Shown here piece by piece: positions 1,572-3,504 of a stretch of DNA of 64,000 bases. The stretch is from Acidobacteriota bacterium (GTDB lineage: Bacteria > Acidobacteriota > UBA6911 > RPQK01 > CBDDCF01): the NCBI GenBank assembly GCA_965225995.1, contig CBDDCF010000030.1, forward strand, positions 36,101 through 100,100, in the 5' to 3' direction. The stretch's first letter is position 1. Each line of letters begins with the position of its first letter. The notes beneath the pieces are model-generated. The model saw only the letters and a program-made list of their open reading frames with translations. It ran no database searches and was not told the DNA's origin. The position numbers were made by a program, and so were the translations under genes.

Positions 1572-3504
1572 ATGATGAAGAAACGGCGACCCAATCGAGC
1601 AAGTCGCCTCGTTCCCTGGCGAATCACGACCGTTCTGCTCCTGTTCGCCTTGTGCCAGGTTGCGTTGGCAAATCCCCCCCGTGTCAGTCTGGTCGAAGGC
1701 ACAGCCCTGTATGAAGCGGCTGACGATGTGGAGATCACCGAACTGACCGTCAATCTTCCCCTGTTGACAGGGGACCGCATCTATGGGGTTGACAACGCGC
1801 GCATCGAGATCCAGCAGGGTTTGGGAAACGTAGTTCGTGTGGCCGGAAACACCGACCTGAAGTGGTTGGGGACCGACACCGTCCTGAGGATCGAGCTCAC
1901 CGCCGGCAACCTCATCCTGAGAGTTACCGACTCAGAGAGCCACAAGATTTTCACTCCTTTCGCTTCGGTTCGCCTCAATACACCCGGTCTTTATCGAGTC
2001 AGTGTCGACCTCGAGGGCCGTCTCCTGCTGACCGTCCGCGAAGGAACGGCTCAGGTGGCCAACCGTTTGCGGGTGCGAGAGGGTCAGTGCAGGGGAACAG
2101 ATCGAGGTCGATCAGGCGCAGTCTGGTCTGACCCAGGTGTCCTTGGCGCTGCCTTTGGATGAGTTCGAGCTGTGGAGTGAGAACCGCGACCACATCTTCC
2201 AGCGTGCGGCTTCAGCCGACTATCTGGATCCGTCCTATACCGCCGGAGTCGTGGAACTCGACCACTACGGGGAATGGGAGCAGGTCAACGACTATGGTCA
2301 GGTCTGGTTTCCTCAGGTCAGTGTAGACTTTACGCCCTATCAAGTAGGCCGATGGGCTCATTATCCCCGCTGGGGATGGACGTGGATCAGCTATGAACCC
2401 TGGGGTTGGCTGCCCTACCACTATGGCCAATGGGTTTACTATCAACCTTACAGCCGTTGGTGTTGGGTACCGGGGCGGTCGAGATGGTCGGGAGCCCTGG
2501 TGGACTTCTACTATGGCGGCGGTTACGTTGGTTGGGCTCCCCGTGGTCATCGAGGTTGGGGCGGGTCGCGACGCTACGGAAGTGGTTTTGGACTGGCCAT
2601 CGGTACTCCGGGTTTTTCCTTCGTATTGCAGACCGATTTCGGTCGACATCGGGTCGATCGCTGGCTTCGCCGTAACGCCGCCAACAACGTCCGAGTATTT
2701 CGCGAGGGGCTTCCCCGAAATATCCAATCGCCGCGCAACCCGCGAACAAACAATGTCGTTACGGTGGGCCGCGCTCGAAACCGTGGGAACCAGTCCCTGG
2801 GTAATCGGAATCGTGGTGTTGTCGTCAACGAGGCTCAGCGCCGCGGGGGAGTATCGAGTGGTAGCTCGAATACCCGGAACGGACTGCAAAGCTGGCGAGA
2901 CCGCGACCGTAACGGGCAGCCCACAGTAAGACAGGGAGACAGCGCAGCGGCCAGCCCGTCATCGCCTGGCTGGACTACTCGCCAGCGTCAAGGCAATCGA
3001 GGAACACAGACCGTCCAACCCGGTCAGCCCTCCCGAAGCAGGCAAAACCAAGAAGGTGTACAGTCGCGTACTCCTTCCCGGAGTCAGAGTTCGACCCCCC
3101 GAGTTTCTCGATCCCGTTCCGGGAACGGACCCCGAGTCACGCAATCTCCGTCGCGCCCCTCGGCAACACGGACCCCCTCCCGTCCGCCAGCGACGAGCGC
3201 GCGACCCAGCAGCCCGCAACGACGGCCCACGGCCTCGGGTCAACCCTCGCGCAACAGGGATCAACAGAACATCCGGTCGCGTACCCCTTCTCGGAGTCGA
3301 AGTTCGACGCCCACAGTTTCTCGATCCCGTTCCAGGAGCGCACCCCGAGTCACGCGGTCTCCGTCTCGTGCTTCGACGCCCCGCTCTCCGTCTCGCTCCT
3401 CGGTAACCCGGGCTCCATCCCGTCCCTCCGTCACGAGCAGCCGGTCGACTGCGCCTCGGCGAAGGCCCACGACATCCGGTCAACGGCCTACCCGGAAGCC
3501 CTAG
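1572..3504 (+). CDS. Secreted FecR-domain protein with Trp/Tyr-rich repeats and an Arg/Ser/Pro/Thr-rich tandem-repeat tail. Apparent single-base frameshift near 2085-2095 joins ORFs 1572..2162 and 2137..3504.
   Basis: Signal peptide (MMKKRRPNRASRLVPW...ALA) followed by a FecR-like beta region. The second frame continues with AGEQIEVDQ... and then W-x-W/YGxW repeats ([24 protein letters not shown]). The frame switch coincides with a gggg run at 2091-2094. Confidence 0.5.
3065..3500 (+). repeat. Intragenic tandem duplication, 2 units of ~213 bp (~71 aa, RS/PT-rich)
   Basis: Unit 1 at 3065-3277 (cgcgtactccttcccggagtcagagttcgac...) and unit 2 at 3278-~3500 (cgcgtaccccttctcggagtcgaagttcgac...) align at roughly 80% identity. 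Confidence 0.7.

Follow-up and report, generated by a model that had tools for sequence, protein, structure and literature searches.

A FecR-like/DUF6600 gene with an arginine- and serine-rich tail in an Acidobacteriota genome, interrupted by a single extra G in its assembly

All known FecR-type domains are, to our knowledge, extracytoplasmic. Described proteins that come close to the gene analyzed here include the periplasmic domain of the FecR/PupR regulators and LipL45 of Leptospira, an exported FecR-domain lipoprotein. Eukaryotic SR splicing factors, with which an arginine- and serine-rich tail invites comparison, are defined by an RS domain of at least 50 amino acids with more than 40% RS content and by one or two N-terminal RNA recognition motif (RRM) domains. 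A literature search found no paper mentioning DUF6600, and nothing specific on FecR proteins with Arg-rich tails in Acidobacteria, on LipL45, or on periplasmic Arg/Ser disordered regions. Here, we describe a gene at positions 1572-3504 of a 64,000-nucleotide stretch of an Acidobacteriota genome (contig CBDDCF010000030.1; the whole stretch is called the window below). It has the same layout of signal peptide, FecR domain, DUF6600 and low-complexity tail as hundreds of homologs, the DUF6600 and FecR-domain proteins named at NCBI in Acidobacteriota metagenome-assembled genomes.

In the window, the gene takes the form of two open reading frames (ORFs) on the forward strand, at 1572..2162 (ORF1, 196 amino acids) and 2137..3504 (ORF2, 455 amino acids), which overlap by 26 nt with frames offset by +1. 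Three-frame translation showed that the ORF2 frame is open from 2032, so a shift at any point in 2032-2160 would join the two. Removal of one G at 2081-2083 creates a 642/643-codon ORF without other defect, and the best homolog of the joined protein (P0001) is uninterrupted, 642 amino acids long and 98% identical. The preliminary description of this DNA had read the two ORFs as one protein on the assumption of a single-base indel, and the intact homolog bears this out. The exact ORF2 product has no record in public collections. We conclude that the region is a single gene of a large, uncharacterized and mainly Acidobacteriota family, broken in this assembly by an extra G. As assembled, it would be expected to yield a secreted FecR fragment without its last strands and a leaderless remainder, products that would therefore be non-functional.

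The position of the shift was established by pairwise DNA alignment with the contig that encodes P0001 (L001, ENA ERZ25071873 contig_59), which is 99.5% identical to window positions 1-10580 (10.6 kb). Inside the gene, the sole indel is the extra G at 2081, where the window has GTGCGAGAGGGTCAGTG and the sibling contig GTGCGAGA-GGTCAGTG, and thus the shift lies in the run of three Gs at 2081-2083. The sibling reads GAGA-GGTCAG at this site and encodes an intact ...RVREVSAGEQIEV... segment. At the protein level P0001 continues as ...ANRLRVREVSAGEQIEVDQ..., whereas ORF1 reads ...RVREGQCRGT... at the same place; the three intact proteins P0001, P0373 and P0374 all read RVREVSAGEQ across it. The indel had earlier been placed at a run of four Gs (2091-2094, within about 2085-2095), and the alignment moves it about 10 nt upstream.

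The repaired protein consists of a Sec signal peptide, a FecR-like beta domain, a helical linker, DUF6600, a conserved segment and a disordered cationic tail (Table 1). Its N-terminus has a basic n-region (MMKKRRPNRASR), a 17-residue hydrophobic core and an ALA|NPP cleavage motif. The AlphaFold 2 (AF2) model places a helix at residues 9-31, and homologs have equivalent leaders, in agreement with the signal peptide proposed initially. From this layout and the homologous leaders, the repaired protein would be exported, which is further supported by the extracytoplasmic location of known FecR-type domains. Residues 35-325, from the FecR-like domain through DUF6600, are modeled with a predicted local distance difference test (pLDDT) score above 90. 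The frameshift cuts the FecR-like domain, whose last strands are therefore encoded in the +1 frame. A direct match to Pfam FecR (PF04773) had been expected for this domain, but the repaired protein has none at E<=1 and the intact P0001 none at E<=0.01; the FecR region of the window copy is too diverged for the Pfam model. On the other hand, PF04773 matches 58 of 62 full-length homologs. The FecR-like identity of the domain thus stands by its predicted fold together with its homologs, that is, by structural match and transitive homology, and not by a direct profile match. Among NCBIfam models, a weak match of the repaired protein to LipL45 (NF033165) covers residues 63-182 (E 0.006). In the linker, W200 is invariant, and D195 and R204 are kept in at least 90% of homologs.

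Table 1. Features of the FecR/DUF6600 gene and of the second split gene in the window (window coordinates).
Feature	Position	Strand	Details
Shine-Dalgarno-like AGGA	1562..1565	+	6 nt before the ATG at 1572; read from the sequence
Signal peptide, 33 amino acids, MMKKRRPNRASRLVPWRITTVLLLFALCQVALA	1572..1670	+	n/h/c layout from the sequence; predicted cleavage ALA|NPP
FecR-like beta domain	1677..2151	+	repaired residues ~36-193; interrupted by the frameshift
Frameshift site	2081..2083	+	run of three Gs with one extra G relative to intact alleles (GAGGGTC vs GAGGTC)
Helical linker (PLDEFELWSENRD...)	2152..2253	+	AF2 helices 196-209, 212-216, 225-231
DUF6600 domain	2254..2547	+	residues 228-325; four ~26-residue Trp/Tyr/Gly/Pro-rich beta-hairpin repeats
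Conserved post-domain segment	2548..2757	+	residues 326-395; motifs GFSFVLQTDF, FREGLP
Disordered Arg/Ser/Pro/Thr-rich tail and stop	2758..3504	+	residues 396-643, 248 amino acids (coding 2758-3501)
Tail duplication, first copy SRTPSRSQSSTPRVSRSRSGNGPRVTQSPSRPSATRTPSR	3063..3182	+	repeat search
Tail duplication, second copy SRTPSRSRSSTPTVSRSRSRSAPRVTRSPSRASTPRSPSR	3276..3395	+	repeat search
ADOP-family duplicated MacB/FtsX permease, split	45824-48675	+	ORFs 45824-47749 and 47593-48675

The tryptophan-rich repeats had been likened to DUF6600-type proteins, and the profile search supports this. Pfam DUF6600 (PF20245) matches with an E-value of 4.6e-26 and a score of 91.3 bits, well above its cutoff of 27. 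The match spans profile positions 3-99 of 102, and all 62 full-length homologs match the domain as well. The 98 residues of the block contain 13 W, 13 Y and 13 G. The AF2 model spaces its four hairpins about 26 residues apart, with the pattern Y-x-x-G-x-W-(6)-G-W-x-W-x-P, and about 11 Trp are invariant across 117 homologs. The segment that follows is modeled with moderate confidence (pLDDT 65-82) and has the family consensus motifs GLTVVxxxDF and RxGLPxxL.

The tail contains 20.6% R, 20.6% S, 11.7% P and 10.1% T and is nearly devoid of Lys, Asp and Glu, giving a net charge of +46 and an isoelectric point (pI) of 12; the folded part of the repaired protein has a pI of 6.2. The pLDDT score falls below 50 from residue 391 on. 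The length and RS/RT/PS-rich character recorded for it at the outset (about 250 residues) are confirmed. RS/SR dipeptides cover 20% of the whole 248-residue tail and 52% of the best 50-residue window. A tandem internal duplication consists of two 79% identical copies spaced 213 nt (71 residues) apart, although Tandem Repeats Finder reported no repeats there. Nearly all of the 117 close homologs also end in an Arg-rich (typically 13-23%), Lys-poor tail, with a net charge mostly between +15 and +65, and 45 of them have a 50-residue window with at least 40% RS/SR coverage. RS-like tails are therefore a family trait and not peculiar to the window gene, and the earlier remark that such tails are rare in bacteria does not hold for this lineage. 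Sparse Trp residues occur in the otherwise aromatic-free tails of P0001-P0011 (window ~2890-2990) in contexts that loosely follow S/R-W-S/T-x-R/P, such as LQSWRDRDR and SPGWTTRQR, and DSRRWSSPSR in P0005. With a mean of 0.68 Trp per tail, the signal was too weak and we rejected it as a motif.

A search with the joined N-terminal 426 residues retrieved 951 homologs at E<=1e-5. In a motif scan restricted to one genome per species, at least 586 loci encode a relative, nearly all in Acidobacteriota, with a few in genomes labeled Nitrospirae/Nitrospiria or Vulcanimicrobiota. The best identity among these species-representative relatives is merely 39-48%, so the source organism is without a close species representative. 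DUF6600 alone is far more numerous, with 11,487 cluster representatives at E<=1e-3, many of which are shorter proteins that lack a FecR domain and have DUF6600 between a signal peptide and a charged disordered tail.

The gene order in both the window and the sibling contig is LptD_N-like, lptB, rpoN, hprK, EIIA(Man), HPr, ptsI, the FecR/DUF6600 gene and hflX, with a 71-nt gap between ptsI and the gene. No sigma-70-like promoter or terminator was found between the ptsI stop (1500) and the gene; the sole terminator-like match falls within the start of the gene and is on the minus strand, and Rfam has no match over window positions 1-12000. Among 85 related loci examined, ptsI lies directly upstream in 25, where PtsI is just 37-46% identical, and rpoN lies close upstream without genes of the phosphotransferase system (PTS) in six more, five of which have hflX downstream. 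The position after the rpoN-PTS cluster is thus deeply conserved and is compatible with co-expression with an envelope/regulatory operon. Against such a link, the adjacency may be inherited gene order without functional meaning, and other family members (paralogs) occupy different genomic contexts, often as tandem pairs. In a second group of paralogs, not adjacent to the PTS genes, a conserved secreted protein of 360-380 amino acids without Pfam match is encoded directly upstream of the FecR/DUF6600 gene or genes (L003 6824-7912, L006 6818-7960 and 17 further loci; 38-88% identity across loci), and tandem FecR/DUF6600 pairs occur at nine of these loci, in eight distinct genomes. This protein is a candidate partner. 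The window itself has no second family copy and no gene for the 360-380-residue partner.

Whether the extra G is a property of the organism or of its assemblies has to be weighed, and we lean slightly towards a real and recent strain-level polymorphism that inactivates the gene. The 90%-identity cluster of the gene contains three intact 642-residue variants (P0001 on a 64-kb contig, P0373 on one of 1.2 Mb and P0374 on one of 52 kb) and two frameshifted 196-residue variants, P0371, which is identical to ORF1 and is also found on a 7.44-Mb contig, and P0372, which differs from it by A48S and lies on a 91.7-kb contig. As both carry the extra G, the same insertion is present in at least two distinct consensus sequences. 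The ORF1 product is also recorded in a k-mer-based Logan assembly (run ERR14231558), where the contig (L002/L090) matches the window without a single difference over 2874 nt, extra G included. This recurrence speaks against an artefact of sequencing or assembly, in which a run length was, for instance, systematically miscalled in several assemblies while the organism itself has an intact 642/643-residue gene. So does the site, since a run of two or three Gs is no classic error-prone homopolymer, and so does the absence of other frameshifts among sibling assemblies in the surrounding 11 kb, where comparison of L090 with L001 (11.3 kb) revealed just one further indel, a 6-nt GGCAAA repeat unit. 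Such an artefact nevertheless remains a serious contender, with several observations on its side. The window contains a second single-G frameshift at ~47,719, in a conserved ADOP permease for which an intact 946-residue sibling (P0380) exists, and sibling assemblies of the same gene hold further, differing indels (P0375, P0378), which suggests indel-prone assemblies. The sibling alleles of the FecR/DUF6600 gene each carry radical amino-acid changes seen in no other allele, and ORF2 is without any decay downstream of the shift. L090 and L001 differ by 15 transitions and 23 transversions over the 11.3 kb (a ratio below 1), and the window and L001 by 18 nonsynonymous and 10 synonymous changes, a ratio near random expectation, even in ptsI and hflX. 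At about 0.5% divergence, this spectrum suggests noise in the consensus sequences or variation too recent to have been purged, and it is closer to noise than to evolved divergence; the changes from the 99.5% identical sibling are too few, and their pattern too near random, for the ratio of nonsynonymous to synonymous substitution rates (dN/dS) to be informative. A functional split would require programmed +1 ribosomal frameshifting or transcriptional slippage, a phase-variation switch at the G run, or two intended products, namely a FecR fragment that is secreted and a W-rich/RS protein that stays in the cytoplasm. Its sole support is the 26-nt overlap of the ORFs and an in-frame GTG at 2137 in ORF2, and we regard it as very improbable. 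All other homologs examined (87%, 61% and lower identity) are single ORFs, as are the three 99% identical alleles, and, unlike in prfB-type genes with a programmed +1 frameshift, the shift is not kept in orthologs; no prfB-type slippery or Shine-Dalgarno context was seen on reading 2032-2162. In contrast to phase-variable contingency loci, the site has no long homopolymer or short tandem repeat tract: it is GG in intact alleles and GGG here, far below known phase-variable tract lengths. Shifting away from the run would scramble the last FecR strands, and ORF2 has neither a signal peptide nor a Shine-Dalgarno sequence.

The tail and the role of the intact protein raise further alternatives. That the Arg/Ser tail is a chance open frame in GC-rich, low-complexity DNA, behind a gene that is in truth shorter, could be argued from a GC content of up to 0.69 in the tail region and from long alternative ORFs across 2959-3483, on the opposite strand as well as in other frames. 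Codon-aligned comparison with an 87% identical ortholog (L088) makes this hardly credible. The dN/dS value is 0.03 in DUF6600, 0.09 in the FecR-like domain, 0.095 in the middle segment and 0.19 in the tail, with purifying selection acting on every part of the gene. The tail value is 0.32 against a 61% identical ortholog, tail indels relative to both orthologs (L088 and L089) are in-frame only, and the C-terminal ...TSGQRPTRKP is kept. These results mean that the tail is translated and under constraint, if a looser one than that on the folded domains, and tails of similar composition in nearly all of the 117 homologs point the same way; the initial view that it is no spurious ORF was correct. 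Judging from these features, we tentatively propose that the intact protein is an exported binder of the envelope or matrix. It would be delivered to the periplasm or cell surface, where the FecR-like and Trp-rich modules would form a folded unit that recognizes a ligand through aromatic platforms of the glycan- or cation-binding kind. The polycationic tail would bind polyanionic envelope or matrix material electrostatically, such as lipopolysaccharide, exopolysaccharide, extracellular DNA or mineral surfaces. A role in the envelope would also fit the conserved place of the gene behind the lptB-rpoN-hprK-EIIA-HPr-ptsI cluster. Alternatively, the protein might be a periplasmic signaling component like the periplasmic part of FecR/PupR, docking on the N-terminal signaling domain of a TonB-dependent transducer or on another outer-membrane partner, with the tail as a spacer. 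This is unlikely, as the beta domain is preceded by the 33-residue signal peptide alone, with no cytoplasmic anti-sigma domain or membrane anchor. No gene for an extracytoplasmic function (ECF) sigma factor or a TonB-dependent receptor adjoins the gene here or at the loci of four homologs looked up, and DUF6600 with a charged tail occurs without a FecR domain in many proteins. To extend the envelope-binder proposal, tails of this kind on exported proteins may define an unrecognized class of bacterial extracytoplasmic polyelectrolyte proteins that condense or cross-link anionic polymers or mineral surfaces, maybe with cation-pi contacts to the DUF6600 of neighbors, their expression coordinated with the lpt-rpoN-PTS(Ntr) operon in Acidobacteriota; we consider this rather unlikely as a whole.

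The second split gene is the ADOP permease, in which a G is missing at ~47,716-47,722, where the window has CCAGCTTT and the intact P0380 (...FFRPGFARTLG...) implies CCAGGCTTT. Once repaired, the protein matches TIGR03434 at 735.6 bits (cutoff 622). Among its sibling variants, the N-terminus of P0378 is shifted, and P0375 points to an additional A some 20 nt upstream. Elsewhere, the GGCAAA unit varies in copy number among sibling assemblies (L090 ~1685, between recJ-like and LptD_N-like genes). An IS21-family element with IstB-like and IstA/rve-like ORFs (window ~8257-10574, minus strand) is common to the window and L001, and synteny breaks just past it at 10580, where L001 goes on with an isochorismatase gene and the window differs. 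A stretch of 151 nt at window 60102-60252 is 97% identical, in inverted orientation, to L001 21779-21929 and is probably repeated or mobile sequence. A DDE_3/HTH transposase ORF (19456-20592, minus strand) adjoins an AmiC-like amidase with TPR, AMIN and Amidase_3 domains (17703-19583, minus strand). Finally, the ORF at 43204-45225 (minus strand) joins an N-terminal DEP domain (E 6.8e-17) to a Pyr_redox_2 pyridine nucleotide-disulfide oxidoreductase with dimerization domain, a combination that is uncommon in bacteria.

In Acidobacteriota, a phylum that is dominant in soil and sediment but poorly studied, DUF6600 proteins are common and widely distributed. The window copy itself adds little, being either a broken or a wrongly assembled allele of a gene found intact in sibling strains, and the interest rests with the family. 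Its intact members would be sensible subjects for functional studies of the acidobacterial envelope or matrix, given their constrained RS-like cationic tail and their position behind the rpoN-PTS cluster. A further reason for study is DUF6600 itself, with about 11 invariant Trp and no solved structural relative on comparison with the PDB.

A structural comparison can be made with the periplasmic domain of FecR/PupR regulators (PDB 6OVM/6OVK, PupR CCSSD; 4M0H/4M0N, BDI_1681), to which the beta domain is 13-19% identical; a family profile searched against PDB sequences gave only a weak match to 4m0h. Multi-copy RecA matches in the same search were rejected as artefacts of summed weak repeats. 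Unlike the FecR/PupR anti-sigma regulators, the window protein has no anti-sigma domain, transmembrane anchor or fecI/fecA-like neighbors, and its beta domain is followed by DUF6600 and a polycationic tail. We therefore rejected an identity as a FecR-type anti-sigma factor, as the defining domain, the anchor and the gene linkage are all absent. LipL45 is alike in being exported, in having a FecR-type domain and in having no anti-sigma part. However, the LipL45 match scores 15.6 bits against a cutoff of 350 and is limited to the FecR-like residues, leaving DUF6600 and the tail uncovered. Membership was rejected on this score and on the absence of a lipobox, the sole Cys of the signal peptide lying in F-A-L-C and not being conserved in P0002 and P0003. 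The N-terminal "cell surface anchoring domain" of MpIBP region I (PDB 5IX9) is 15% identical; the match most likely covers a sub-sandwich of the FecR-like domain, and there is no RTX adhesin context here.

The tail resembles the RS domains of eukaryotic SR splicing factors in being Arg/Ser-rich, disordered and of low complexity, and to this extent the likeness proposed in the preliminary description stands. Homology does not: Pfam finds only DUF6600 in the repaired protein and no RRM, and composition alone is similar, so we rejected homology to SR proteins. The RS/SR share is 52% in the best 50-residue window and 20% over the whole tail. The tail also differs from their RS domains in being rich in Pro and Thr, and the signal peptide would make the protein extracytoplasmic, unlike SR proteins. 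DUF6600 is alike to the aromatic beta-hairpin modules of MORN, RHS/YD repeats and the CPAP G-box in its predicted tandem Trp/Tyr/Gly hairpins of about 26 residues; choline- and cell-wall-binding repeats are further modules of this type. Among other DUF6600 proteins, the window copy is set apart by its 1-nt insertion and its diverged FecR region, and by nothing essential. The family is common, already catalogued and uncharacterized, and the window gene is a further member of it.

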